Positions 2,931-62,865 of a stretch of DNA of 64,000 nt are shown piece after piece. Within the stretch, counting starts at the first letter, position 1; the number at the start of each line of letters is the position of its first letter. The notes under the pieces were generated by a model, which saw only the letters and a list, made by a program, of their open reading frames with translations, made no database searches and was not told where the DNA came from. The stretch is from Dehalococcoidia bacterium (GTDB lineage: Bacteria; Chloroflexota; Dehalococcoidia; Bin125), in NCBI GenBank assembly GCA_965261715.1, contig OZ253471.1, positions 624,763-688,762 of the forward strand. The letters are read 5' to 3'. The translations under genes and the position numbers were made by a program.

Positions 2931-4193
2931 TTATCGCGCTCGGGCAAACCCTGCCGGAATCATGCCGATTACCAGGCCCGACACCCGGCGATCCTCGCTC
3001 TGCCGCATTCTGCCGACGATTTGGCGGAGCACCGTTCCCAGGAGGGTTCGGTTGAAGAGCCAGTCGTTGAGGTCGGCGTCGGTCGGGTAGTTGGCGCCCG
3101 GTTGGGCGGTGGCGGCTTCGTGGTAGAAGGCACGCAGGTCGTCGGAGGCGAACTTTAGCCTCAACGGCATTGGATGATTCCAGTCGACTTCACTGTCGGA
3201 TGGGCCGTCCGACGGCTCTGCGCCGGTGGCGAAGTCCGCGACTAGTGTCGCCAGGTCTTCGATCTGTTCGACGGCTGCCCCGCTGATCCCGATTGTGGTC
3301 CGACCGCGTCGCTTGATCTGCTCCGCGTGCCACGGCGCAAGCTGTCGAATCTCCTCGACCAACTGATCGCGCAGCGCCTCGGACTCGTTGGCGGGCTCCG
3401 GCGGCGCCAATGCGACGGCGCAGGCCCATGGGTCGTCGCCGGAGGTCGGGGCGTCGTGCGGGTAGTCGGCGATGGTCGTTTCGGTCGCGGTTTCCAGCAA
3501 ATCCAGAGCAGACTTCAGCACATCGCGCTGGAAGTCGGGCTGGTCGGGCGAGCCGAGCGGCCGTCCCAAGGGGAACGGCACCCAGAGCGAGCGCGGCGGC
3601 TTCATGCCCTCTGGGTGGGCCCGAATCAGCGAGACGCCGGTCGTCGCGACGCGGCCATCGCTGCCGCGTTCGATGTAATGGCTGAGCGCACACACGGAGC
3701 GCGTGCAGAACGGTCAAACGGGTGTCAGGAACGCGGCATCAACTCCGTCCTCGGCCAGTAGCCGGCCAATCTCCTCGCCCGTCTTCTCAAGCCGAGTCGG
3801 CTCCGGCTGCGCGCCCATGAACGAGTAGTGATAGCGGCTGACGCCGCCGATCACACCCTGTTCCGCGAGCTCGCGCAAACGCTCAAGCGGGAAGACCGTG
3901 TTGATGTCCTGCTGGAATCCCGAACGGTCGAAGTTCACGGACATGTGCGACATCCGCAGGTCGTTGAAGTCGATCTCGCCGGGAATCAGACGGTACTCCA
4001 CCGAACCCGGATTGAACGTCCGATCGTCGTGGGAGTGCAAACCGGCGGTCGTGACGATCGCGATGGTCAATTCCGCCAACGGCTTGGGCGTAATCCATGG
4101 CTGGGGCTCGATCTCTGGGAGCGGAAGACTGAGCAGATTCTTCGCCATGTCGGGGTGCATGTCTTCGGTTCGGACCATGGGGCGGCTCCGCAA
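2931..4193 (-). CDS. GrdB/PrdB-family reductase-like protein with one in-frame TGA (candidate selenocysteine; otherwise a pseudogene)
   Basis: Track ORFs 3714..4193(-) and 2931..3695(-) are in the same frame, separated only by TGA at complement(3714-3716): ...AAFLTPV-[TGA]-PFCTRSVCALSHYIERG.... This gives a U-x-x-C context. No other stop lies between them. Confidence 0.5.
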
Positions 4194-4251: not shown

Positions 4252-4347
4252 CGTCCCCGTCCCCGCCACCGAGCGGGGACCTGTTCCCTCTCGCGGTGGA
4301 TGCAGGCGTGGGCCGAGCGGGTCCCCGCTCGGTGGCGGGGACGGGAG
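4252..4347. repeat. 96-bp element with perfect 25-bp terminal inverted repeats (cccgtccccgccaccgagcggggac ... gtccccgctcggtggcggggacggg)
   Basis: The arms are exact reverse complements. Each arm also contains its own 7-bp sub-palindrome (tccccgc/gcgggga). It lies in the divergent intergenic region between 4193 and 4408. Confidence 0.7.
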
Positions 4348-4932: not shown

Positions 4933-5640
4933 ATGCAACGCGATCAGAAGCCGGCCGAGCCGGAGCTTCCCGAGTGGCTGCAGAAGATCGAGCGCTTCCC
5001 CCAGGTTGATCCGGTTGTCCTGCTGGGCTTTGCGCCGGTCGCGCTCTATCTGTTCTTCGACCGCGTCTGGGATGTCCGTCCGGCAATCGCAGCGGCGGTG
5101 ATCGCCGCGGTCGTCGTCTTCTTTGTTCAGCGCCGGCTGCGACCGCAACACAAGGTCGTGTTTCGTCTGGCCGTGTTGGGCCTCGCGGTCATCATCGCCT
5201 TTGGCATCGCCGGTCTGATCTGGGACGACGGCAAGATCTTCTGGGCTTCCGATCCGATCGAAGACTTCATCGTCGGGACGATCTTTGCGATCAGCCTGTT
5301 CATGCGTCGGCCGATCATCAGCCCGGTGATCCGTGAACTGATGCCGGAAGTCGCGGACAAGTTGCCCGGCGACCACAAGATCTGGATGAAGGTGACCGCC
5401 GTCTGGACCGTCAAGATCCTGCTGGCCGGTGTGCTACGGCTCTGGCTGCTGGACAGCGTCGACGCCAATACCTACGCCATCCTCAGATGGCCGCTCGGTT
5501 GGGCGATGAACGCAGCGCTGTTTGCCTGGAGCGCCTACGTGGTGGGCGGCGCCATTCGCGAATACGCCGTTTCGCAGCTTCGCGCCGAATCAGGCGAGGC
5601 CGGCGAAGTGGTCGCGGAGTCCGAGATCAGTGAACGCTGA
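4933..5640 (+). CDS. Integral membrane protein (several TM helices), function unknown
   Basis: From ATG at 4933 (MQRDQKPAEPELPEWL...). Hydrophobic segments VVLLGFAPVALYLFF, IAAAVIAAVVVFFV, LAVLGLAVIIAFGIAGLIW. The upstream part of the track ORF overlaps the repeat element. Confidence 0.55.
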   Translation: MQRDQKPAEPELPEWLQKIERFPQVDPVVLLGFAPVALYLFFDRVWDVRPAIAAAVIAAVVVFFVQRRLRPQHKVVFRLAVLGLAVIIAFGIAGLIWDDGKIFWASDPIEDFIVGTIFAISLFMRRPIISPVIRELMPEVADKLPGDHKIWMKVTAVWTVKILLAGVLRLWLLDSVDANTYAILRWPLGWAMNAALFAWSAYVVGGAIREYAVSQLRAESGEAGEVVAESEISER

Positions 5641-6675
5641 GCGGAACCACTCGATCACCTCGGGGTGATAGGGGATGCCGCGCTCGGAACGATCGATCTC
5701 CGCCTCATGCTCCTCGAGTCCCGCGTAAATCACGCGCTCCTCACCCGGCGCCGTCGGCGTCTCCCGTAGCGATTTCAGGTACTGGTCCATGTTGGACTTG
5801 AACTCGTCGACATCGGTGAAGGCGGCGATGTTGAAGACCGTGAAGTGGTGTCCGACGCCCTTGAATCGATGCAGCGCCGATCCGGCGCCGGCCATGATCC
5901 CGCTGAGGATGTCGATCGACATGGCCAGCGAGTAGCCCTTGTGCGAACCGATCTCCCGCGTGCCGCCGAGCGGCAGCATCAGGAACTCGTCGGGCGTTGG
6001 GCCCGATTCCATGATCGGTGTGCCGTCGGCGCTGGCGACCCAGCCGGGCAGCAGGTCCTCTCCGAGGCGCTGCGCCAGGCGAATCTTGTTGCCGGCAACC
6101 GATGACATCGAGGCGTCGAAGATGAACGGAGCCTCTTCATTGGCAGGCGCCGCGACGCTGAGCGGGTTGAGTCCAACCATCGCTTGCGCGCCATGCGTCG
6201 GCGCGACGAGCAGACCGCCGACCGTCATCGAGAGGCCGATCATGTCGTGCTCGATCGCCATCTGCGCGTGATAGGCAGCCGCGCCGAAATGCCGGCCATT
6301 GTTGCAGACGACAGTGGCGACGCCGCAGTTGCGCGCCTTCTCGATTGCGATCTCCATGGCTTGCGGTCCGAGCGTGAGTCCGAGGCCGCGGTCGCAGTCG
6401 ATCGTCGCCGCGGCCGGGGCGTCGCGCTCCAGCTTCCAGTCGGGCGTGGGATTGATATCGCCCGATTTGAAGCCGGCGACGTAGGCGCGCAGCATGTTGG
6501 AGACGCCGTGCGAGTCGATCCCGCGCAGGTCGGCGTAGAGCAGCGTGTCGGTGCTGCGCGTGGCGTCGTCCTCGGGCATGCCCATCCGGGTGAAGATCTC
6601 GTGTACGGCGCCGTGCATTGCGTCACCGGGGATGCGAACGGCGATCTCTTCGGGGACGGCGAACTGCTTCAGCAT
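5590..6675 (-). CDS. Ldh-family oxidoreductase (malate/L-lactate/sulfolactate dehydrogenase type 2 family)
   Basis: 361 aa with the Ldh_2-type layout: ...GIDSHGVSNMLRAYV...GRHFGAAAYHAQMA...HKGYSLAMSIDILSG.... Its 3' end overlaps the convergent membrane-protein gene by 51 nt. Confidence 0.75.
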   Translation of the reverse strand: MLKQFAVPEEIAVRIPGDAMHGAVHEIFTRMGMPEDDATRSTDTLLYADLRGIDSHGVSNMLRAYVAGFKSGDINPTPDWKLERDAPAAATIDCDRGLGLTLGPQAMEIAIEKARNCGVATVVCNNGRHFGAAAYHAQMAIEHDMIGLSMTVGGLLVAPTHGAQAMVGLNPLSVAAPANEEAPFIFDASMSSVAGNKIRLAQRLGEDLLPGWVASADGTPIMESGPTPDEFLMLPLGGTREIGSHKGYSLAMSIDILSGIMAGAGSALHRFKGVGHHFTVFNIAAFTDVDEFKSNMDQYLKSLRETPTAPGEERVIYAGLEEHEAEIDRSERGIPYHPEVIEWFRSAFTDLGLRDHFAGLA

Positions 6676-6928
6676 GAGGGGCTCCAGGGCTGCTTCCCGC
6701 GGGTCAAGCAGGGCGCTCGCGGGTCGAATCTGATGGTCTGTCGAGCAGGGTACCGCCAGTCTGATTCGTGGTTGTCAGCTGAACTGTGGCAAGTATGCGC
6801 TTTATCGTCCGTTGACATTTCCTTGATGTCGCGGACCGCTGATCTGCATAACGTCGGGAATGGAGACAACGGAAGGGCGGCGCAGGGCAGCTCGCCGGAC
6901 TCCAAGCAGATCAGAGGAGTGTGACGTC

Positions 6929-7183
6929 ATGAATGCGATGCCTGACTCGAATCCCTACGCGCTGGTTCAGCCGCAGCTCAAGGAGACGTACATGCGCGAA
7001 ATCGCCCGGCGTCGATGGATGAGCCAGCAGGAGCAGGAGCGCAAGCAGGCGCGCCGCCAGCGCGTCGCCAAGGTCGCCGACCGCGTCAAGCAGGTTCAGC
7101 GACTGCGACCCGGCCATGCAGTGGCCCACTCGCTGTCGCCGGTCTACAGCATGTTCAGCGAATCCTTCTTCCGCGGTCTCTAA
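6929..7183 (+). CDS. Small basic hypothetical protein
   Basis: ATG at 6929 is preceded by aggagtg. It is followed by a clear rho-independent terminator (gggcgaccctcgtggtcgccctttcgg at 7213-7240). Confidence 0.4.
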   Translation: MNAMPDSNPYALVQPQLKETYMREIARRRWMSQQEQERKQARRQRVAKVADRVKQVQRLRPGHAVAHSLSPVYSMFSESFFRGL

Positions 7184-7263
7184 GGCGGCTCACGGACCAG
7201 GAAGCAACTGTAAGGGCGACCCTCGTGGTCGCCCTTTCGGTTGCCTGCCGGACGCAACCTCCG

Positions 7264-7725
7264 CTACTCCCCTCGTGCACAGGCAAACAAGCCGTGCGGC
7301 TCATGGCCGCCGACCGCAAACAGATTGCCGTTGGGAGACCAATCAGCACGGTGCCTCGGTACAGATTCATATGAGTCGTGGTTTCGGCAGCTGGCCGCTG
7401 CAATGAGCTCACGGTCCACTTCGCCACCACGTCCGACTATCAACACCCGGAAATTGTACAGACCGTTGACCAGGAGTTCAGGGAGTACGCTCTCTCCCCT
7501 CAGTGTGATTTGAATTGAGTCACCCGTTGGATTCCAAGCTGCAGCTCGCTGCCAATGGGTCCACGGCTTGCTGCCAAAGTCAAGTTCCACTCCTCTCGCA
7601 GTCGACAGATCGAGCAGCATCGCACCGTGAATGAAGTCGATCGCGTAGACGTCCCAAACGGCCAATACGAGAGCTTGCTCTTCCTTGGACCAGTAGACAA
7701 CCAGCCTGGGTCTTTCACGGTCCAT
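7264..7725 (-). CDS. Hypothetical protein; possibly the C-terminal part of the upstream lipoprotein gene (same frame, separated by one TAG)
   Basis: Same reading frame as 7777..9483(-). A single TAG at complement(7777-7779) is the only stop between them. Confidence 0.35.
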   Translation of the reverse strand: MDRERPRLVVYWSKEEQALVLAVWDVYAIDFIHGAMLLDLSTARGVELDFGSKPWTHWQRAAAWNPTGDSIQITLRGESVLPELLVNGLYNFRVLIVGRGGEVDRELIAAASCRNHDSYESVPRHRADWSPNGNLFAVGGHEPHGLFACARGE

Positions 7726-7776
7726 GCTCGGATCGAACGGCGGCCATATCTGCGTTCCGGTTGATCGCTGACTGGA

Positions 7777-9483
7777 CTACACAACAACAGCGCGAAGGTC
7801 GTGTTGTCGGGCACTGTATAGCCAAGCTCGCCCTGTCGATTCCTCAACCACCATGGCGTGTCGCCGCAACGGTGACCACGCGATATAGATTGGCTCTTCA
7901 AGCGTGTCGCCTCCCTCTACTGACCGTATACGAGCAACGTCTTCATCCTTGCTCCCTCCAGATTCAAATGGCTCAAATCGAAGGAATTCGCCAGTGAATG
8001 TGAACACCAATGTGTGCAAATCTAGATCGCCCTTGATATCCACGCACAAGGCAGCAGTCGCAATCGTGTCGTCGCCGTGAAACTCCCACGTGCTGAAGTA
8101 GCCGTCAGCAAATGGTGGATCCACACGGCACGCTCGTCCTCGAAACTCACGACTCCAGAATGGGTCGAGTCGGATCATGTGACCTTCATCGTGGAACAGG
8201 AGCGTCGTAGGGGAACGTGGTTCCTGGCCTCTGTCGAACAAGGCGATTCGGAGCATGACTGCTTTGCTGTTTTTCGACCACTTTAGGTTCGCGTTCCACC
8301 CGCTGGATGTCATACCGAGGGATGACGCCACCTCCAATGTTCTGAAATCCTCAACAAAGGCGATGCGCTGCGTTCCGTCAAGCGGAATGATCAGCACACT
8401 ATTGTCTCGACCGCAATCAAGATCACGAGCGCACAGATCAGCGATCGCCAGATACCGACCATCCGGCGACAACTTCGCAAAGCCGGGCGGACGCGCGATG
8501 AATTCCAACTCATCCGTCTCCGGACGCCACTGCCAGATGTGGGTGTCGTTGTGAGCCAGCAGCCAACCCCAGGGCAGCCACATCCACTCGTTCGCTCTCG
8601 GTAGAATCTTCCCCTGCCCGACGCGAAAGTCATCTCCGGGGAAGATGACCGTCTCATCGCCAATCAGAATGGGCAGGTCTTGCAGCGTGACGTCGCCAGC
8701 CGGCAGGTTCACCTCGTCGATCGGCGCGCCGGTGATTGTTGACGTGTCGTCCTCAATTTTCAGCAGCCGGACTTCCGCGCCGTCTGCCGACTGCCCCATC
8801 ACCCCGTACTCCACGCCTCGCCACTCGGCGATCAGCGGAGGCGCTGGCTTTTCTAGCACCTGCCGTTGCTCGACCCTCCCGAGATCCAGCATCGTCGTGC
8901 GGATCCAGCCCTCTAAATCTCCGCCGAATCTGATCCGGTACCAACCGTCGGCGTGTTGTAGGACCGCCACTGACGCCCCGGACTCCAGCCGATCCATAAC
9001 CGGCCAGGCCAACCCCGGCCGCATCCGTACATCGGCGTCCTGCACAACAGCAGCGGGCACATCGGTCCGATCCAGGGGATGTTGCCTGGGTTCCGGCCTA
9101 GCCTCCTCAGCCTGATCGTCAGTCCGTGCGGGCGCTGCCTCGGGTGATGGCTGTTCTGAGACTTGCGCCGTCTCCTCCGCAGTCGACGCCTCCGCTGGCA
9201 GCGCATCCTCAGGCTCATCCGCGGCCGCTGGCTCTGCTTCTGACTCTGCTGCGCGGTCGACATCCCCAGGCCGCCTCGATGCCTGGGCGGCTGATTGCCC
9301 TGGAGCTTCCTGCTGCGCAACCGGTTTCGACGCCCGCTGCGTCTGCGTCTGAGGCTCGGACACCGAAACCGGCTCGTCGCCTCCACACGCGGCCACCACC
9401 ACGGCCAGAAACAACGCACAGTACAGACATAGGACTCGCATACAGATAGAAACGTACTGCGCTCCGGCAATGTTCCCAACCAC
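7777..9483 (-). CDS. Lipoprotein with acidic Pro/Ala/Glu-rich linker, bacterial SH3-like domain and beta-rich C-terminal region
   Basis: Signal peptide plus lipobox: LCLYCALFLAVVVAACGG. SH3_3-like segment: MRPGLAWPVMDRLESGASVAVLQHADGWYRIRFGGDLEGWIRT. Confidence 0.6.
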   Translation of the reverse strand: MVGNIAGAQYVSICMRVLCLYCALFLAVVVAACGGDEPVSVSEPQTQTQRASKPVAQQEAPGQSAAQASRRPGDVDRAAESEAEPAAADEPEDALPAEASTAEETAQVSEQPSPEAAPARTDDQAEEARPEPRQHPLDRTDVPAAVVQDADVRMRPGLAWPVMDRLESGASVAVLQHADGWYRIRFGGDLEGWIRTTMLDLGRVEQRQVLEKPAPPLIAEWRGVEYGVMGQSADGAEVRLLKIEDDTSTITGAPIDEVNLPAGDVTLQDLPILIGDETVIFPGDDFRVGQGKILPRANEWMWLPWGWLLAHNDTHIWQWRPETDELEFIARPPGFAKLSPDGRYLAIADLCARDLDCGRDNSVLIIPLDGTQRIAFVEDFRTLEVASSLGMTSSGWNANLKWSKNSKAVMLRIALFDRGQEPRSPTTLLFHDEGHMIRLDPFWSREFRGRACRVDPPFADGYFSTWEFHGDDTIATAALCVDIKGDLDLHTLVFTFTGEFLRFEPFESGGSKDEDVARIRSVEGGDTLEEPIYIAWSPLRRHAMVVEESTGRAWLYSARQHDLRAVVV

Positions 9484-9751
9484 GCAAACTCGCTAATATA
9501 AGAACACACGTGCCAAATAGCCAGGAAGACCCACCCATGCCCACCCCCATCTAATACAGAGCCTTCATCAACCGCCTCGCCCACCTCGCCGACGCCCGCA
9601 ACCTATCGCACATCTGTGTCGCCGCCACCGGCCTCATGCCCCGCCAACTCTCCCCGGCCAACTAATGGCGGCTTTCGCGACCAACCGGTCCGGGAGCCGC
9701 CGTCTTTGACTCCTGGGAACATCGCGACTCTGATGCCCGGATCCTGCGGTA

Positions 9752-9952
9752 TCACGCCCCGCTGAGCACGGCGCCTATCAAAGCGATCATCAATGCCCCC
9801 AGCAAGCCCATCCCCCACAACATCATTCTCTGCAGGTCTTCGATCCTGCCGTTGAGCTGTTCCCGGAGATCGTCAATTCGCCCGTTGAGCTGATCGCGGA
9901 CCATTTGCAGTTCAGAGAGTGTCGCCGGTCTCGAGTCTTCGCCAGTTGTCAT
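9752..9952 (-). CDS. Small coiled-coil protein with C-terminal transmembrane helix (XhlA-like architecture)
   Basis: MTTGEDSRPATLSELQMVRDQLNGRIDDLREQLNGRIEDLQRMMLWGMGLLGALMIALIGAVLSGA. The longer track ORF (to 10120) may be an N-terminal over-extension. Confidence 0.3.
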   Translation of the reverse strand: MTTGEDSRPATLSELQMVRDQLNGRIDDLREQLNGRIEDLQRMMLWGMGLLGALMIALIGAVLSGA

Positions 9953-10260
9953 TGCCAGCCACCTCCACCACCAAGAATCCTGGTGTCGCGCTGCATCTTC
10001 AGCATAACCGTGTTCTTCGACCGCCGGACACGCAACCACTGTCCTAACACCCGTCGCCAAGAGGTCCTCCAGTGTCTGAAGGAGATATCCGAGAATTCCG
10101 TATCTGTTCACCCGATTCATCCGGGCAAGGATTGCTTTCTCAGGAGGCTGAGAAGTCGCTGATACACTGCGGGCTGCGTGAACGAAATCACGTGGTTAAG
10201 TTATGCACGCGCGGCACGATGCCGTGCGGCCGAACAAGCAATTGTTGAGAGGGGAGCGCG

Positions 10261-10683
10261 GTGGCCGAGTACACCAAGCCCATTCCGAGTCCCGACCCGG
10301 TCTCACAGCCGTTCTGGGACGGGGCGAAAGCGGGGAAGCTGATGCTCCCCCGTTGTTCCGACTGCAACCGAGTCCACTGGTACCCGCGGGTGATCTGCCC
10401 GTTCTGCCACTCGATGAACATCGAGTGGGTCGAGGCGACCGGCAAGGGCACCATCCACACCTTCGCCGTTCAGCACAACCGAGGACTCGTTGCGCGCGGC
10501 TGGAGCGATGAGGTCCCATACGTCTCCGCCTACATCGACCTGGCCGAGGGCGACCGGATGCTGACCGTGCTCAAGGGCGTCGACCCCAACGACCCCGAAT
10601 CGATTGAGATCGGTGGCGCAGTCCAGATCGAGTTCGAAGCAGCCTCCGAGGACGTCCACATCCCCTTCTGGCGGCCTGTCTAA
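10261..10683 (+). CDS. Zn-ribbon/OB-fold protein (DUF35 family), partner of the thiolase-like protein
   Basis: Cys pairs CSDCNRV...CPFCHS (zinc ribbon) followed by an OB-fold region. GTG start with gaggggag RBS. This adjacency to an SCP-x-type thiolase gene is canonical. Confidence 0.75.
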   Translation: MAEYTKPIPSPDPVSQPFWDGAKAGKLMLPRCSDCNRVHWYPRVICPFCHSMNIEWVEATGKGTIHTFAVQHNRGLVARGWSDEVPYVSAYIDLAEGDRMLTVLKGVDPNDPESIEIGGAVQIEFEAASEDVHIPFWRPV

Positions 10684-12574: not shown

Positions 12575-12705
12575 CCGATGTGTTAACCTGATGGAAGATT
12601 GAAGCCGGGGTGGTCCGACCGTTAACACACGGGGTTCGGGCCTGAGAACACACCCGCTGAACCTGATCCGGGTAATGCCGGCGCAGGGAGCAAGCGCAGC
12701 AGCCA
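12575..12705 (+). ncRNA. TPP (thiamine pyrophosphate) riboswitch
   Basis: Contains the conserved THI-element cores ...ggggtggtcc...cctgagaa...acccgctgaacctgatccgggtaatgccggcgcagggag..., immediately upstream of thiD. Confidence 0.85.
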
Positions 12706-12753
12706 TCAGGCCCACCCGCAAGACAGTCGACCGCCCACACGCGGGAGCATTCC

Positions 12754-44567: not shown

Positions 44568-44644
44568 TGGCGCGCCCGGCAGGACTCGAACCTGCGACCT
44601 CTGCCTCCGCAGGGCAGCGCTCTAATCCGCTGAGCTACGGGCGC
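44568..44644 (-). tRNA. tRNA-Arg (anticodon GCG as read)
   Basis: Reverse complement gcgcccgtagctcagcggattagagcgctgccctgcggaggcagaggtcgcaggttcgagtcctgccgggcgcgcca; anticodon loop cuGCGga. Confidence 0.7.
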
Positions 44645-44685
44645 AATGCAACGGCGGGTTGGAAGTGGCTGGAGACTTCGAGTGC

Positions 44686-44772
44686 TGGTGCCGACGAAGG
44701 GATTCGAACCCCCACGGGCTTAAGCCCACTACGCCCTGAACGTAGCGCGTCTACCAATTTCGCCACGTCGGC
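44686..44772 (-). tRNA. tRNA-Leu (CAG)
   Basis: Reverse complement gccgacgtggcgaaattggtagacgcgctacgttcagggcgtagtgggcttaagcccgtgggggttcgaatcccttcgtcggcacca. Long variable arm, anticodon CAG. Confidence 0.8.
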
Positions 44773-44862
44773 AGCGATCCGGAGTCTGCTTCGACTCCCT
44801 CCAGTCTCCTTGTTGTTGCCAACCCTTTCAAGCGTATCCCGAAATCTGATAACGGCGAATGC

Positions 44863-44939
44863 TGGTGGGCGATGCAGGACTTGAACCTGCGGCCTCTCGG
44901 ATGTGAACCGAACGCTCTAGCCAGCTGAGCTAATCGCCC
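44863..44939 (-). tRNA. tRNA-Val (CAC)
   Basis: Reverse complement gggcgattagctcagctggctagagcgttcggttcacatccgagaggccgcaggttcaagtcctgcatcgcccacca. Confidence 0.8.
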
Positions 44940-44991
44940 GTATCTGAAGGACGCACCCCAAGGTGCTGGTAGCAGACGCACCCCAAGGTGC

Positions 44992-45067
44992 TGGTAGCAG
45001 CGGCAGGACTCGAACCTGCGACACGGGGCTTATGAGTCCCCTGCTCTGCCTACTGAGCTACGCTGCC
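44992..45067 (-). tRNA. tRNA-Met (CAT), elongator type
   Basis: Reverse complement ggcagcgtagctcagtaggcagagcaggggactcataagccccgtgtcgcaggttcgagtcctgccgctgctacca. The 3' terminal 23-25 nt are tandemly duplicated immediately downstream (44950-45000). Confidence 0.75.
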
Positions 45068-55808: not shown

Positions 55809-56031
55809 GCGCAAATGAAGAACGCACCGCTCGGCAAGAAGCCTGATGAGCGTTTCGCAGATGCCAGCCTTAACAATTGGAGAGCGGAAGTCCAGTGTGC
55901 TTGGGGAGCCCCCCCAAGTCCGGACACAAAAATCGTTGCGATTCCTTTGGGAGTGGCAGCGGTCGCGATGTCCGAACAATCTCTACTTTTGCAGCCGGCA
56001 TGACCGGCTGAACCAATGGAGAGTTTGATCC

Positions 56032-57512
<1,481 letters not shown>

Positions 57513-57762
57513 TAGGGAGAATGCCGATCGACCCCGCCTCGGTGGGAATCGGTCGAGCTCCCAGGTCGATCCGCCAGCCTCTATCACCAGTGCTTGCATT
57601 GCTGAGCGAGGCGCCCTGAGGCCGACGCCCCTAACACGGGCGGACGCCAACGAGTCAACGGCGTGATTATGGTTTCACAAGCGCACTGACTTTCGCTCTC
57701 CAACGGTTAAGGCCGACCCCCGGGCCGCGATTCCGACCGAATCGCGGACCCGAGGCCATCCC

Positions 57763-57839
57763 GGGCCATTAGCTCAGCAGGTTAGAGCGCAGTCCTGATA
57801 AGACTGAGGTCCCTGGTTCGAGTCCAGGATGGCCCACCA
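57763..57839 (+). tRNA. tRNA-Ile (GAT)
   Basis: gggccattagctcagcaggttagagcgcagtcctgataagactgaggtccctggttcgagtccaggatggcccacca. Confidence 0.9.
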
Positions 57840-57954
57840 ACCAGAAGACTCCCGTCCAATGAACAGGCGGGAGTTTTTCGCGTCCAGCGGCCTGCAGGGT
57901 CACATTTCGAGTCCGGCGATGCAAAGCCTCGCCAGGCGCTAAAGTAACGATCCC

Positions 57955-58030
57955 GGGGCCGTAGCTCAGCCGGGAGAGCGCCGCCCTTGCACGGCGGAGG
58001 TCAGGGGTTCGATTCCCCTCGGCTCCACCA
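57955..58030 (+). tRNA. tRNA-Ala (TGC), intact copy
   Basis: ggggccgtagctcagccgggagagcgccgcccttgcacggcggaggtcaggggttcgattcccctcggctccacca. G3:U70 and encoded CCA. Confidence 0.9.
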
Positions 58031-58069
58031 CTCCCAGATCCTTGGATTCCACGAGATGGAAGCGGCACG

Positions 58070-58474
58070 ATGAGTGACGACGCGCCCGCTGATCAGCCAG
58101 ACCAGCGCCCCGGCCGGATCGGCTGGCAGGACCTGACCGTCGACAATGCGGAGGTCGTGCGCGACTTCTACAGCGAGGTCGTTGGTTGGAAGACGATGCC
58201 GCTCGACATGGGCGGCTACGACGACTACGTGCTGCTCAGCCCCGACGGCCAGGCCGGCGACGGCCAGGCCGGAATCGCGGGAGGCTGCCACGCCCGAGGA
58301 GTCAACGCCAATCTCCCGCCACAATGGCTGATCTACGTCAACGTCGAAGACCTCGACGCCAGCTTGAAGTCCCTGGGAGGCAGCATCGTGGATGGGCCCA
58401 GGGAGATGGGTGAGGGTCGGTTTTGTGTCATCAGAGATCCGGCAGGCGCGGTCTGTGGATTGATTGAGCAGTAG
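58070..58474 (+). CDS. VOC-family (glyoxalase/bleomycin-resistance fold) protein
   Basis: …IGWQDLTVDNAEVVRDFYSEVVGWK…GRFCVIRDPAGAVCGLIEQ is a typical single-module VOC protein. Starts 40 nt after tRNA-Ala. Confidence 0.6.
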   Translation: MSDDAPADQPDQRPGRIGWQDLTVDNAEVVRDFYSEVVGWKTMPLDMGGYDDYVLLSPDGQAGDGQAGIAGGCHARGVNANLPPQWLIYVNVEDLDASLKSLGGSIVDGPREMGEGRFCVIRDPAGAVCGLIEQ

Positions 58475-58562
58475 CTCAGTCGGCTTAGGTTCTCCATGTT
58501 CACAGGCGCGGGACGATGGCGGCCTGCGGTCGGAGCGGGCTATATTGGTCTCGCGATACCGG

Positions 58563-58994
58563 TTCATGGAGATTGAAGTGGGTGAGATCATCGTCGAGAT
58601 TGAGCTGGAAAATGCCGAGGACCGATCGGACGCGCGCCGCGGACGGATCGACGAGGCGTCGGTGCGGCGGGAAAAGGTGCAGGCAGTCGCGGACACCGGC
58701 GCGGTGATGCTGGCGCTGCCCGAGGATGTAGTGGAGGGACTCGGACTGCCAACGGTCCGGACGCTGACGAGCACATTCGCCGACGGTCGACGCGGTCAAT
58801 TGCCGATCGCCGGGCCGCTAACGATCCAGATCGGAGACCGACAAATGCTGACGGAGTGCATCGTCGTGCCCGAGGGCGCCGAGGCGCTGGTCGGGCAGGT
58901 CGTGATGGAGACCCTGGACTTGATTCCCGACCCCATGAATCAGACGCTAGGCCCAAGGCCGAAGTCGCCAGATCGTTCGTTGCTGCGGGTGTAG
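58563..58994 (+). CDS. Retropepsin-like (clan AA) aspartic protease
   Basis: Catalytic motif ADTGAVMLALPEDVVEGLGL (D-T-G-A). The true start is likely ATG 58563 (MEIEVGEIIVE...) rather than the overlapping 58464. Confidence 0.55.
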   Translation, partial: FMEIEVGEIIVEIELENAEDRSDARRGRIDEASVRREKVQAVADTGAVMLALPEDVVEGLGLPTVRTLTSTFADGRRGQLPIAGPLTIQIGDRQMLTECIVVPEGAEALVGQVVMETLDLIPDPMNQTLGPRPKSPDRSLLRV

Positions 58995-59098
58995 GGATTA
59001 TCGGCTGCATCGTTTCGCGCAGGCTTTTGCAATAGGGTCCAGTGAGGTGGAGATTCGGACGCGCGTCGGATCGGATCGGGCGCTACGCTGGGGATGCA

Positions 59099-59174
59099 CG
59101 GGCCGTAGCTCAGCTGGGAGAGCGCCGCTCTTGCACGGCGGAGGTCAGGGGTTCGATTCCCCTCGACTCCACTA
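59099..59174 (+). pseudogene. Second, degenerate tRNA-Ala(TGC) copy (tRNA-like remnant / att-like duplicate)
   Basis: cgggccgtagctcagctgggagagcgccgctcttgcacggcggaggtcaggggttcgattcccctcgactccacta. Has C1 instead of G1, a C5-A68 mismatch, and ends CTA instead of CCA. Otherwise about 93% identical to the copy at 57955. Confidence 0.6.
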
Positions 59175-59207
59175 CTTGGACATAAGTATTGTGTGCGGGA
59201 TAGACGA

Positions 59208-60971
59208 ATGCAAATCAAGGAACTCCACGTTCAACGTTTCCGGGGGTTCTCGGAAATCAAGATCCGACCTCGCGGGAACGTCGTTTTGATGGGAGAACCC
59301 GGCGCTGGACGCACTGACCTTTTCGAAGCGTTGAGCAGACTTCTGAACTTCTATCAAGGTCGCAATCGCGAGATCAGTGAGTTGGACTTCCACTTGGGAG
59401 ACTGCAGCGAACCAATCAGAATATCGGTCACGCTAGGTGATCTTGACATCGACCTCGAACAGGATTTCTTCGACCACTTGGAACTATGGGACGAAACTGA
59501 TCGTTGCTTGATCGATGAAGCCCAGAATGGTCAATTGGACGACCGAGCCGATTGTTCATGGGCATTCAGAATAACGTACGAGGCTCGCTGGCTGCAGGAC
59601 GAAGCAATGCCAGAGGACCGGGTGTTCTTTCCGAAAGACTCCGATCCTGAGTCCGGAATATTTGCCCGTGTCCGGCGCAATGACCTTGAGGCTCTTGGCT
59701 TTGGTCTGCTCCGCCCGGGGAGCACAGGGATGCTCGAATTGGGCCCACGTAGTGACTTTCGCAAACTGGTTGATGTCGCAAATGGTGACGATTTCGGGGC
59801 AGCTATGAGAAAATATGTCAACGAGGTCGGCATAGCGGCGGAGAACTTCAGTCACTCTGACCAGGTGCAAGCGGCAGTCGCAAGAATTGTTGCGCTAACG
59901 GGTGAGCTTCAAGGAATCCCGAACATTGATCCGAGCACTTTCATCCAATTTGCCCCTGATGACGGTTCTGAAAGCGGCTTACTGCGCTCTCTCGGAGCTG
60001 CAGTGGACTTTGACGATGGAGTCGGACAGCTACCAGCCTGGCGGCACGGATCATCTACCAGATCGCTTCTGAAGGTCGCTGAAGTGGTCGCTGCGGCCAA
60101 AAGCCCCAAACCAGTCTTGGTCATTGATGACCTCGGAGACGGAATGGATGCACCGTCTGCAGCGCATCTAGCTGCTGCGCTGTGCGAAACAGCCAGCCAA
60201 GTGTGGGTAACCACGCGGATACCCGCGGTTGCAGAAGTATTCCAACCTCAGGAAGTGCTGCGCCTCGGAAAAGGGAAGGCCGGGAAGAGAACGCTGCACA
60301 GCGGAACACACGCAATTAAGCCCGAGGAAGCTGCGATGTACAAGCACTGGCATCGAAACCTGTTGCCAGCTTTGACCTATCGAAGCGTCATAATAGTTGA
60401 AGGGCCTCACGACTTCGTCGCCTTGCACACACTTGCTCTCCGGCTGCATGAAGAACGTGGTACCGCCCTTCCTGCGACACACAAAATAGCAATTGTCAGC
60501 GCAGGCGCAAGTGGTGACGGCGGATACGCAACAGTGATGAAGTTGGCTCGGCAAGCCAAATCAATGGGTCTATTTGCGGTTGGCGCAGTTGACGGCGACT
60601 CCGATCCGGCTTCCCTGAAATACATCGAGACAAACTTAGAAATGGCTGACTCTGTAGTGCGGCTTCCTCGTCGGTTCGCAATCGAAAAGGCTCTCGTTCA
60701 CGACATTCCGGATAGCGTCCTCATGAGCGTTGTTCAGGATCTTGAGAACGCAGTAAACATGGAGAACACCAACGTGCAGCCTTCGGATGGCGGAGATATA
60801 CACAAGAAGGCAATGGCCCTTCTGAAGAAGGAATCACTGCACGGGCCCTTCATCGACCTACTCCCAGCAGAACACCTGCCCCCTCTCGCCTGCCGATACT
60901 TAGGGACCTTAGTTGGCGCCGCTAGAGGCGACTCAGCAGGATTGATTCAACTTTGCAAATCAACGACCTAA
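59208..60971 (+). CDS. gajA: OLD-family ATP-dependent endonuclease (ABC-type ATPase + C-terminal TOPRIM), Gabija GajA-like
   Basis: N-terminal MQIKELHVQRFRGFSEIKIRPRGNVVLMGEPGAGRTDLFEAL (P-loop, with Arg in the usual Lys position). Walker B-like VLVIDDLGDG. C-terminal TOPRIM: IIVEGPHDF (Glu) and AVDGDSD (DxD). GC about 50% vs the window's roughly 65% background. ATG 59193 is an alternative start. Confidence 0.75.
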   Translation: MQIKELHVQRFRGFSEIKIRPRGNVVLMGEPGAGRTDLFEALSRLLNFYQGRNREISELDFHLGDCSEPIRISVTLGDLDIDLEQDFFDHLELWDETDRCLIDEAQNGQLDDRADCSWAFRITYEARWLQDEAMPEDRVFFPKDSDPESGIFARVRRNDLEALGFGLLRPGSTGMLELGPRSDFRKLVDVANGDDFGAAMRKYVNEVGIAAENFSHSDQVQAAVARIVALTGELQGIPNIDPSTFIQFAPDDGSESGLLRSLGAAVDFDDGVGQLPAWRHGSSTRSLLKVAEVVAAAKSPKPVLVIDDLGDGMDAPSAAHLAAALCETASQVWVTTRIPAVAEVFQPQEVLRLGKGKAGKRTLHSGTHAIKPEEAAMYKHWHRNLLPALTYRSVIIVEGPHDFVALHTLALRLHEERGTALPATHKIAIVSAGASGDGGYATVMKLARQAKSMGLFAVGAVDGDSDPASLKYIETNLEMADSVVRLPRRFAIEKALVHDIPDSVLMSVVQDLENAVNMENTNVQPSDGGDIHKKAMALLKKESLHGPFIDLLPAEHLPPLACRYLGTLVGAARGDSAGLIQLCKSTT

Positions 60972-62593
60972 AGCCATCGCAACAAGAAGTCATCAACGCA
61001 CTGCTGGGCGATGCCTCGAGGGTGCTCGTTGCTGGCGGTCCTGGAACTGGAAAAACCACGACGGCGCTGTGGGCAGCTCGCTCCTTTTTAGAGGCCGACC
61101 ACGACAACATCCCCAATCGCGTTCTGTTCTTAACATTCTCACGATCGGCGGTCGATCAGATCCAGAAGCGCTGTCCGGCAGCACTCGCGGGGTATGAAGA
61201 TAGGGTCGAAGTATCGACATTCCACGCCATCGCGTACCGCCTTATCCGTACATTTGGCCGATATGGTGGCCTTGGCAGGGAACTGCCAGCGATCCAATCA
61301 AGGGCATCGGAAAAGCTGTTTCAGCGAGACCGAAGTGCATACAGTTACGACGATTTGCTCCCGACTGCAACAGCACTCTTGGAAGGCAGCGAATTGGTCC
61401 GGCGTATTGTGTCAAATCGCTGGGGGCTGTTAATATGTGATGAGGTGCAAGACACGTCCTCGGAGCAGTGGCAATTCTTGCAGCTGCTATCGTCGAATGA
61501 GCTTCTATTGTTGGGTGACCTCGGGCAGATGATATACGGTTGGCTTCCAGGTGTATCGGTAGATACGTTCCACGATATGAAAGAACAGGTTGATGTTACT
61601 TTACATCTCGCGGCATCTTCTTTTCGAGATCCCTCCGGTGCGATTCCAGGATTGGCCGATGCAGTCAGAACGCGGCAATTCGATCACGGGGCAGTGCACA
61701 ATGCTCTGGAAGAGCAGCGTTTGATCGTCGTGCCAGATACGGGTAACGATATGGTGCCGGGAAATCTGATCAAGTTGGTAGAGAGTGCAAGGGCACCGAG
61801 ACATGAAGATGTCGGTATCTTTGCCGCGGACAACGAGACGGTCGCCCAGATAGGGGTTCACCTGCACGATGCTGACATCGATCATGTTCTGGTAGGAATT
61901 CCTGAGGCTCACGGTGAGGCTTTGGCGGCAATGGTTGCACAAATCTCCTTTGCGGTGGGGTTGATTGGTCAAGAAACTCTTCGGCACGCAATGGCGTTGT
62001 TTGTCACGGCCTGCGCAAGAGGATCTAGTGTTCCAGTGTTGGCACATAAGCTTGTCGGGAGAATGCCCTTGACGCAGACAGAGGAGTTAGCACTGTGGAG
62101 GCAGGAAAGATCGCTCGCGGCTGCCGGGATGGGTACGGTTGGAGGAGTGGCTCAGGCCGCGAGCGAATGTTGGAGCGGATTGCCTATCGGGTCCGCGGTG
62201 CGACCTTGGCAGCGCGCGGTCCGGCATTTCATGCGCTTGATGGGGCGGGATCGGGCTCTGTCCGCGTCCGGCGACATTGTATCGGTCTTGAAGCAGGTCG
62301 TCGAGGTTGGAAGAGCCGAGTCTCTAGTGGATTTGAATTATTTTGAGCGCGGTCGCGTGATGCTGATGACCTTGCATCAGACCAAGGGTCGGGAAGTCGA
62401 TACGGTGATTCTCGTGTTTCGCTCGGAAGATTACTTCGGCCGAGAAGGAGAACCATTCGAAGATTCTTCGCGGCTTCTCAACGTGGCGATTTCGCGAGCT
62501 CGCAAACGCGTCATAGTCGTGGTCCCATCTGATCCTCATCCGCTCATAGCACCGTTCCAGACTCTAGCTCAGGGAGGTAGCTTCAAGTTGTGA
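60953..62593 (+). CDS. gajB: UvrD/PcrA-like SF1 helicase, Gabija GajB-like
   Basis: Motif I VLVAGGPGTGKTTTAL. Motif II LLICDEVQD. Motif III LLLLGDLGQMIY. Motif VI VMLMTLHQTKGREVDTVILVF. Overlaps gajA by 19 nt (operon). Confidence 0.75.
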   Translation: MQINDLKPSQQEVINALLGDASRVLVAGGPGTGKTTTALWAARSFLEADHDNIPNRVLFLTFSRSAVDQIQKRCPAALAGYEDRVEVSTFHAIAYRLIRTFGRYGGLGRELPAIQSRASEKLFQRDRSAYSYDDLLPTATALLEGSELVRRIVSNRWGLLICDEVQDTSSEQWQFLQLLSSNELLLLGDLGQMIYGWLPGVSVDTFHDMKEQVDVTLHLAASSFRDPSGAIPGLADAVRTRQFDHGAVHNALEEQRLIVVPDTGNDMVPGNLIKLVESARAPRHEDVGIFAADNETVAQIGVHLHDADIDHVLVGIPEAHGEALAAMVAQISFAVGLIGQETLRHAMALFVTACARGSSVPVLAHKLVGRMPLTQTEELALWRQERSLAAAGMGTVGGVAQAASECWSGLPIGSAVRPWQRAVRHFMRLMGRDRALSASGDIVSVLKQVVEVGRAESLVDLNYFERGRVMLMTLHQTKGREVDTVILVFRSEDYFGREGEPFEDSSRLLNVAISRARKRVIVVVPSDPHPLIAPFQTLAQGGSFKL

Positions 62594-62730
62594 AGGGAGT
62601 GACGAGTGCAGGCCTCCTCTTTGGAGACCGTTTGCGGGTAGAGGCCGCATGTTGAGAAGTGTTCCCATCTGCTTTGTTGTTGCCTGGTTTATCGATTGCG
62701 GCTGTCAGCGCCGTGCTAAGATTTCTGGGA

Positions 62731-62847
62731 GCTGGTGATTGGAGCGCGGTGGCCCCACCCGTTCCCATCCCGAACACGGAAGTGAAACGCCGCAGCGCTG
62801 ACGATACTGGGGGGGCAACCCCCTGCGGAAAATAGGCCATCGCCAGC
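62731..62847 (+). rRNA. rrf: 5S ribosomal RNA
   Basis: gctggtgattggagcgcggtggccccacccgttcccatcccgaacacggaagtgaaacgccgcagcgctgacgatactggggggcaaccccctgcggaaaataggccatcgccagc. Helix I closes between the two ends. Confidence 0.9.
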
Positions 62848-62865
62848 TCGCTCTTTTCCTGCTCC

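Follow-up and report, generated by a model that had tools for sequence, protein, structure and literature searches.

A PrdB-like gene with a predicted in-frame selenocysteine codon in a Dehalococcoidia bacterium

Does a TGA that divides a reductase-like reading frame end a gene, disable it, or encode selenocysteine (Sec)? The question is raised by a 64,000-nucleotide stretch of contig OZ253471.1 from a Dehalococcoidia bacterium (assembly GCA_965261715.1; positions 624,763 to 688,762 of the forward strand), referred to here as the window. On its minus strand, a preliminary description had noted two open reading frames (ORFs), 3714..4193 and 2931..3695, as parts of a single reductase gene related to GrdB and PrdB. 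When the sequence and its translation were re-read, the two ORFs were indeed found to share one frame, with the TGA at 3716..3714 as their sole separator. The read-through product (...DGVDAAFLTPV-[UGA]-PFCTRSVCALSHY...) also contains the U-x-x-C context reported for it (LTPV-U-PFC-TRS). Comparison with relatives, presented below, suggests that 2931-4178 on the minus strand is one 415-residue selenoprotein gene whose UGA is decoded as Sec155 (probability of roughly 0.92).

An interrupted frame of this kind is common in the window: at 62% G+C, it holds dozens of same-frame ORF pairs joined by TGA, so the pattern by itself is no proof and comparative evidence has to decide. The remaining pairs were rejected as spurious high-G+C ORFs, none with a redox context. 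Only the 2931-4193 pair combines homology on both sides of the TGA, a U-x-x-C motif, and a TGA kept in 56/56 relatives. Among ordinary stop codons in the window, TGA is the commonest (26 of 53 genes), and the genetic code is thus not reassigned. The mechanical ORF begins at TTG 4193; the true start is likely ATG 4178-4176, given that homologues begin with MVR or MVK and that a GGAG lies upstream. With tblastn, residues 1-415 were matched across the TGA in 36 Dehalococcoidia genomes. The gene and its key codons are laid out as follows.

2931..4178, minus strand: complete predicted selenoprotein gene, from ATG 4178-4176 through the in-frame UGA to TAA 2933-2931; 415 residues
4186..4189, minus strand: GGAG, putative Shine-Dalgarno-like element read from the sequence, 7 nt upstream of ATG 4178
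3714..3716, minus strand: UGA codon of residue 155, very probably read as Sec, from its conservation, the Cys homologues, and the alignment with the Sec of prdB
3705..3707, minus strand: UGC codon of Cys158, the U-x-x-C partner, an invariant column in the homologue alignment

Relatives were scanned with one genome per species, comprising 36 loci from Dehalococcoidia (80-98% protein identity to the window gene) and 20 from Betaproteobacteria/Burkholderiales (about 40%). A TGA stood at the aligned codon in 56/56 of these loci, in the context PV-U-P-x-C-T. Cys158 was kept in 55/56 (the sole exception, L045, has Tyr), and the frame was intact for 260 codons past the TGA in every locus. In other lineages, nine full-length homologues (P0066, P0067, P0068, P0069, P0072, P0095, P0104, P0108, and P0120) all carry Cys at the UGA column, encoded by UGC or UGU, confirming the expectation of the preliminary description that homologues would show Sec or Cys there; the alignment columns of C155, C158, and R160 do not vary. 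The same position was reached by alignment to authentic PrdB, for which we used the RefSeq-annotated prdB genes of Terrisporobacter petrolearius (next to prdA) and Peptoclostridium acidaminophilum: the window TGA falls on the annotated Sec TGA (LTAG-U-GTC-HRS versus LTPV-U-PFC-TRS). The ratio of nonsynonymous to synonymous substitution rates (dN/dS) was 0.03-0.10 before the TGA and 0.04-0.15 after it, with dS at about 0.8-1.2, indicating that both halves of the gene are under strong purifying selection.

Most of the family appears to be hidden by annotation. An exhaustive profile search returned 3,709 relatives, 486 of them at E ≤ 1e-30. Among the best 150 representatives at 50% identity, about 125 were fragments of 230-260 amino acids (aa) that start just past the Sec position, and only about 20 were full-length, suggesting that Sec forms predominate and are routinely split by gene callers. 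Public gene calls likewise replace the one gene with two "hypothetical proteins," one of 154-159 aa and the other of roughly 250 aa.

If the UGA is read as Sec, a bacterial selenocysteine insertion sequence (SECIS) would be expected in the coding sequence just downstream, and the preliminary description had proposed a hairpin there. Two elements were delineated in this region (positions with a plus sign are counted from the U of the UGA).

3686..3702, minus strand: candidate SECIS-type minihelix of 17 nt, +15..+31, GCGCUCCGUGUGUGCGC, supported by covariation, RNAalifold, and fdhF-like geometry; apical loop with G22-U23
3660..3716, minus strand: zone of low synonymous variation spanning the UGA and codons 156-173, taken as the footprint of an RNA element in the coding sequence

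In 37 Dehalococcoidia genes, codons 156-173 had a synonymous codon diversity of 0.14, which ranked second among 381 sliding windows; the value for the whole gene was 0.39. In an 87%-identical orthologue (L001), the 60 nt that start shortly before the UGA and end at +57 match the window at every position, versus 94% identity in the flanks. Three candidate structures were then compared on an alignment of 57 sequences. When 45 nt of the window are folded alone, the hairpin of the preliminary description (CACGCGCUCCGUGUGUG, +11..+27) has the minimum free energy; this register was 87% paired but had 0 compensatory changes in the 57 sequences, and it was rejected. The +15..+31 structure (7 bp closing a G22-U23-N24 loop; 84% of cells paired) showed compensatory changes at three pairs, 16:30, 19:27, and 21:25. 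Pair 16:30 is C-G in Dehalococcoidia and U-A in Betaproteobacteria, while pair 19:27 occurs as G-C, U-A, G-U, and U-U, and as A-U in one paralogue of the related contig L058. We prefer the +15..+31 register because compensatory changes are present there and none at +11..+27. Thus, a hairpin 3' of the UGA was borne out by the comparison, whereas its original register was not.

Other properties of the preferred structure point the same way. Its covariation was matched by 0/500 shuffles, although covariation in coding sequence is confounded by amino acid conservation. G22-U23 is invariant in a loop at +22..+24, which agrees with the requirement for bacterial SECIS elements of an apical loop 16-37 nt past the UGA with G-U in the loop. 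RNAalifold recovered the core pairs (15-18 with 26-29) both in the pooled set and in Dehalococcoidia. Of the two betaproteobacterial groups, the larger yielded all 7 bp of the stem, whereas the smaller gave a related stem in which U16 is bulged. The third candidate, a long 23-bp hairpin at +9..+56 that is the minimum-free-energy fold of the 57-nt stretch, was rejected: it was 77% paired and not conserved in Betaproteobacteria, and its four compensatory pairs were no better than those of slid controls. It may add a lower stem in Dehalococcoidia, since the synonymous constraint extends to +57.

Several observations weigh against Sec decoding. The alternative register +11..+27 pairs equally well. 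In the window itself, the minihelix has a U-U mismatch at 19:27 and is weak, at about -5 kcal/mol, and shuffled sequences fold as well as the 57-nt stretch (z = -0.63). An Rfam search of the region downstream of the UGA matched no family. Neither ARAGORN nor tblastn with Escherichia coli SelA, SelB, and SelD detected tRNA-Sec, selA, selB, or selD anywhere in the 64 kb of the window or in the fetched loci. Such machinery is on record only for a related species, which serves as a proxy: locus L006 belongs to "Chloroflexi bacterium bin125" from the sponge Aplysina aerophoba, and the bin125 column of Table S4 in Slaby et al. 2017 (PMC5649159) lists SelA=1, SelB=1, and SelD=1. Most of the sponge-symbiont bins in that study are reported to have SelA and SelB together. 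Between bin125 and the window, identity is 93% for the protein and about 85% for the nucleotides of the locus, values that make bin125 a related species and not the source genome. For the source organism, we infer actual Sec insertion.

How else might the TGA be explained? The preliminary description had offered a nonsense-mutated pseudogene, that is, a GrdB/PrdB-like gene broken at codon 155. The division of the gene into two hypothetical proteins in public gene calls and the lack of visible Sec machinery in the window would fit such a history. However, the TGA recurs in 56/56 species genomes of two phyla and in three paralogues, the frame stays intact for 260 codons past the stop in every locus, and downstream dN/dS is 0.04-0.15 at near-saturated dS. 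With TGA conservation and dN/dS values of 0.03-0.15 on the two sides, the pseudogene is excluded for practical purposes, and we give it almost no weight. It is also very unlikely that the UGA is a true stop followed by a restart at GTG 3695 or a similar codon, yielding a split two-subunit protein. A GTG-start ORF (2931..3695) does exist, and gene callers report the C-terminal ORF in >100 clusters, but the putative restart varies among these fragment calls (profile positions 121-162). Moreover, P-F-C-T-R-S-V, encoded between the TGA and the GTG, is conserved as protein, including the invariant Cys158 and Arg160, which argues against a split model in which these residues would go untranslated. 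The Cys homologues are single polypeptides, and the UGA coincides with the Sec of PrdB.

There is a similarly slim chance that the UGA is recoded but not as Sec, whether by near-cognate read-through with Trp or Cys or by SelB-mediated insertion of Cys when selenium is scarce. Sec insertion is here deduced from sequence, and family members with Cys evidently function, both of which leave room for this explanation. Nevertheless, a covarying SECIS-type hairpin, fdhF-like in its geometry, lies at SelB-binding distance, a related metagenome-assembled genome (MAG) encodes SelA, SelB, and SelD, and general read-through or reassignment is unlikely where TGA is the commonest normal stop. Decoding of the UGA as Sec155 within a single polypeptide therefore remains the reading that we adopt.

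Profile searches, run on the protein with U replaced by C, placed this polypeptide near the B subunits of selenium-dependent reductases. Pfam GRDB (PF07355) matched at 44 bits, above its gathering cut-off of 22, with residues 23-152 corresponding to profile positions 214-345 of 347 and ending two residues before the UGA. The PrdB profile TIGR04483 matched residues 23-233 (E=2e-33; 115.7 bits), short of its equivalog cut-off of 300 bits. TIGR01918 (glycine/betaine/sarcosine/D-proline reductase selenoprotein B) scored 58.1 bits, below its cut-off of 65.45. Two domains are proposed.

3480..4112, minus strand: PrdB/GrdB-like domain, residues 23-233, from PF07355, TIGR04483, and collinearity with authentic PrdB; Rossmann-like alpha/beta fold in the model of a homologue
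2934..3479, minus strand: mostly helical C-terminal domain, residues 234-415, absent from PrdB, with the invariant Cys253 (codon 3422-3420)

Residues 234-415 matched no family in Pfam or NCBIfam profile searches. In the homologue alignment, C253, E276, G297, D347, and E354 are invariant within this domain. An AlphaFold (AF2) model of the Cys homologue P0072 (mean predicted local distance difference test score [pLDDT], 85.8; predicted template modeling score [pTM], 0.86) comprises an alpha/beta domain and a helical C-terminal domain, with the C/U-x-x-C motif between a beta-strand and the N terminus of a helix. No solved structure resembling the protein was found by sequence or by fold.

Together, these features suggest how the protein may be made and may work. 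SelB carrying Sec-tRNA(Sec) would bind the coding-sequence SECIS hairpin just past the UGA, in the standard bacterial way; the core of the element would be the 17-nt minihelix at +15..+31 with G-U in its loop, within a constrained zone that reaches to about +57. In the folded protein, the U-x-x-C redox pair would consist of Sec155 and Cys158, placed where an alpha-helix begins after a beta-strand. By analogy with PrdB and GrdB, the selenol would attack a bound substrate or a partner disulfide, an Se-S bond would then form with Cys158, and a cellular thiol reductant would regenerate the Sec155-Cys158 pair. Selenol/thiol redox chemistry at U155-x-x-C158 is most likely on this analogy, and the protein would work without the PrdA, GrdA, or GrdE partners of the clostridial complexes.

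The neighbors of the gene in the window encode an alpha/beta hydrolase, a DUF3159/IspA membrane protein, and an Ldh_2 dehydrogenase, and these three genes are found in conserved synteny in Dehalococcoidia. Neither prdA, prdC, nor any other prd gene was found nearby in the window or in about 70 loci (±3-10 kb inspected). Over the same distance, grdA, grdC, grdD, grdE, and the thioredoxin genes trxA and trxB were not found near the gene in the window or in related loci. A conserved partner gene was considered and rejected, as neighborhoods differ among lineages. A TauD-family dioxygenase gene is directly adjacent in two Cys-form clades, upstream in one and downstream in the other. Recurrent neighbors in other lineages include sulfatases (within a few kb), alpha/beta hydrolases, GST, and acyl-CoA enzymes. 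The TauD and sulfatase neighbors, noted from L060-L063, L052, L053, L068, and L069, possibly reflect a functional link with the PrdB-like gene.

Further observations were made on the flanks of the gene. Synteny between the PrdB-like gene and the Ldh_2-family dehydrogenase gene (5593-6675, minus strand) holds in every Dehalococcoidia locus. In P. acidaminophilum, an "Ldh family oxidoreductase" gene (9292-10392 of L072) is located at a distance of 2.7 kb from the stand-alone prdB; the two Ldh proteins share 33% identity, a family-level likeness only, and no assignment to a specific subfamily was possible. The intergenic stretch 2523-2905, which separates the selenoprotein gene from the convergent alpha/beta-hydrolase gene, contains tandem repeats of about 140 bp that are 83-100% identical, together with several G/C-rich palindromes of the type CCCCCCTTGCGGGGG, which resemble repetitive extragenic palindromic (REP) elements or miniature inverted-repeat transposable elements (MITEs). 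At 4256-4345, between the start of the selenoprotein gene and a divergent 114-aa ORF, there is a 31-nt inverted repeat (94% complementary; 28-nt spacer). A scan for promoters and terminators found nothing.

Additional copies of the gene were found. The window genome carries at least one more (P0081) on the same 3,612,147-bp contig, and L058, a related Chloroflexota contig, has three tandem PrdB-like paralogues at 5497-10444, interspersed with a PIN-domain gene. All three have the in-frame TGA and a hairpin with a GUC loop. With the window gene, its second same-genome copy, and the three in L058, the PrdB-like family has multiplied in sponge-associated Dehalococcoidia.

Elsewhere in the window, an rRNA locus at 56013-62848 begins with 16S (56013-57511), tRNA-Ile, and tRNA-Ala (57955-58030). 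It continues through about 1 kb of coding sequence and a second tRNA-Ala(tgc) (59099-59172; about 95% identical to the first) and ends with 5S (62731-62848). This locus is without a 23S gene: Rfam gave no large-subunit rRNA at either threshold, and two universal 23S motifs were absent from the whole window. The space that 23S would take is occupied by a Gabija-type defense pair (59208-62590, plus strand), located right after the second tRNA-Ala and composed of a 587-aa GajA (PADLOC E=1.8e-33) and a 546-aa UvrD-like helicase, GajB (E=6.6e-52). The G+C content of the pair (about 54%, compared to 62% for the window) suggests an inserted island. Thiamine-related genes are preceded by a thiamine pyrophosphate (TPP) riboswitch at 12596-12706 (plus strand; 60 bits against a gathering score of 54.3), and four tRNA genes (Arg-gcg, Leu-cag, Val-cac, and Met-cat) are located within 500 bp at 44568-45067 (minus strand).

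The unique helical C-terminal domain with its invariant Cys, the lack of PrdA or GrdA genes nearby, and the predominance of Sec forms raise the possibility that PrdB-like proteins of this long form constitute a separate, stand-alone selenoenzyme family with its own reaction, distinct from the proline and glycine reductase subunits. We put this forward tentatively, at somewhat short of even odds. If it is true, retention of these genes would help to explain the SelA/SelB enrichment in sponge symbionts (Slaby et al. 2017), and the TauD, sulfatase, hydrolase, and acyl-CoA neighbors would hint at a reduction that takes part in degrading sulfated or esterified organic matter. The consequence for annotation is that one 415-aa selenoprotein should replace two "hypothetical proteins." The same splitting, in >100 related protein clusters, conceals a large and mostly Sec-containing family that is abundant in marine metagenomes. 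The sponge-associated Dehalococcoidia lineage very probably decodes Sec, and predicted selenoprotein genes now accompany the SelA/SelB enrichment reported for sponge symbionts. What is known of Sec decoding, and of the existence of PrdB-like selenoproteins, is unchanged by this finding.

Among known systems, the SECIS of E. coli fdhF, which we fetched and folded, has the same layout as the candidate hairpin: an 11-nt spacer and a 17-nt minihelix at +15..+31. Both carry G-U in the apical loop (G22-U23 here, G23-U24 in fdhF), and the bulged U in the 5' arm of fdhF is matched in one betaproteobacterial subgroup. In contrast, there is no sequence similarity, and the loop is GGUC in fdhF but 3-5 nt long here (GUN or CGUGU). 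In addition, the window copy has a U-U mismatch, the constrained zone here extends to about +57, and SelB binding is predicted here.

Clostridial D-proline reductase PrdB (TIGR04483) is collinear with the window protein over residues 23-233, its Sec UGA occupies the same alignment column, U-x-x-C-x-R-S is common to both, and the SECIS hairpin lies in the coding sequence directly past the UGA. However, PrdB stops at about 240 aa, whereas the window protein has an extra C-terminal domain of ~180 aa and SHMSVNFDRSGF where PrdB has SHGGYDN. The prdB gene of Terrisporobacter adjoins prdA, whereas no prd neighbors were found for the long-form genes in the inspected loci. The hosts differ as well, being marine and freshwater MAG lineages for the long form and amino-acid-fermenting clostridia for PrdB. 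With GrdB, GrdF, and GrdH (PF07355, TIGR01918), the window protein shares a GRDB domain above threshold, and a U-x-x-C redox motif is given for the GrdB family in the review literature (PMC13188914). Nevertheless, it matches only the C-terminal third of GrdB, has UxxCxxxxC in place of the UxxCxxC of GrdB, and has no adjacent grdA, grdC, grdD, grdE, or trxB gene. Therefore, of the "reductase B-type" label in the preliminary description, the shared PrdB/GrdB domain and the Sec site hold, whereas the curated PrdB and GrdB thresholds and the partner genes do not support it. Given the scores below those thresholds, the ~180 extra residues with Cys253, and the lack of partner genes nearby, the window protein, as judged from its sequence, falls outside the defined subunits of D-proline and glycine reductase.

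Another comparison is with the "PrdB" proteins of ocean metagenomes. "Proline reductase PrdB (pfam07355, UxxC)" was among the most abundant marine selenoproteins in the Sargasso Sea data, with 42 Sec and 1 Cys forms (Zhang, Fomenko & Gladyshev 2005, PMC1088965), and the Global Ocean Sampling (GOS) metagenome yielded 235 Sec and 110 Cys forms of PrdB (Zhang & Gladyshev 2008, PMC2398784); PrdB and GrdB both appear as UxxC selenoproteins in reviews. The Sargasso and GOS proteins have the same Pfam domain and UxxC motif as the window protein, and their Sec forms likewise outnumber Cys forms. Dehalococcoidia sponge symbionts, the C-terminal domain, and a tandem expansion of paralogues are not reported in those papers. 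The Joint Genome Institute (JGI) labels the marine Cys homologue P0079 as PrdB. From the shared domain, motif, habitat, Sec:Cys ratio, and this label, we infer that the metagenomic "PrdB" would correspond to the long-form subfamily. PrdB-like selenoproteins are thus already known from the ocean, and the window gene adds a member.

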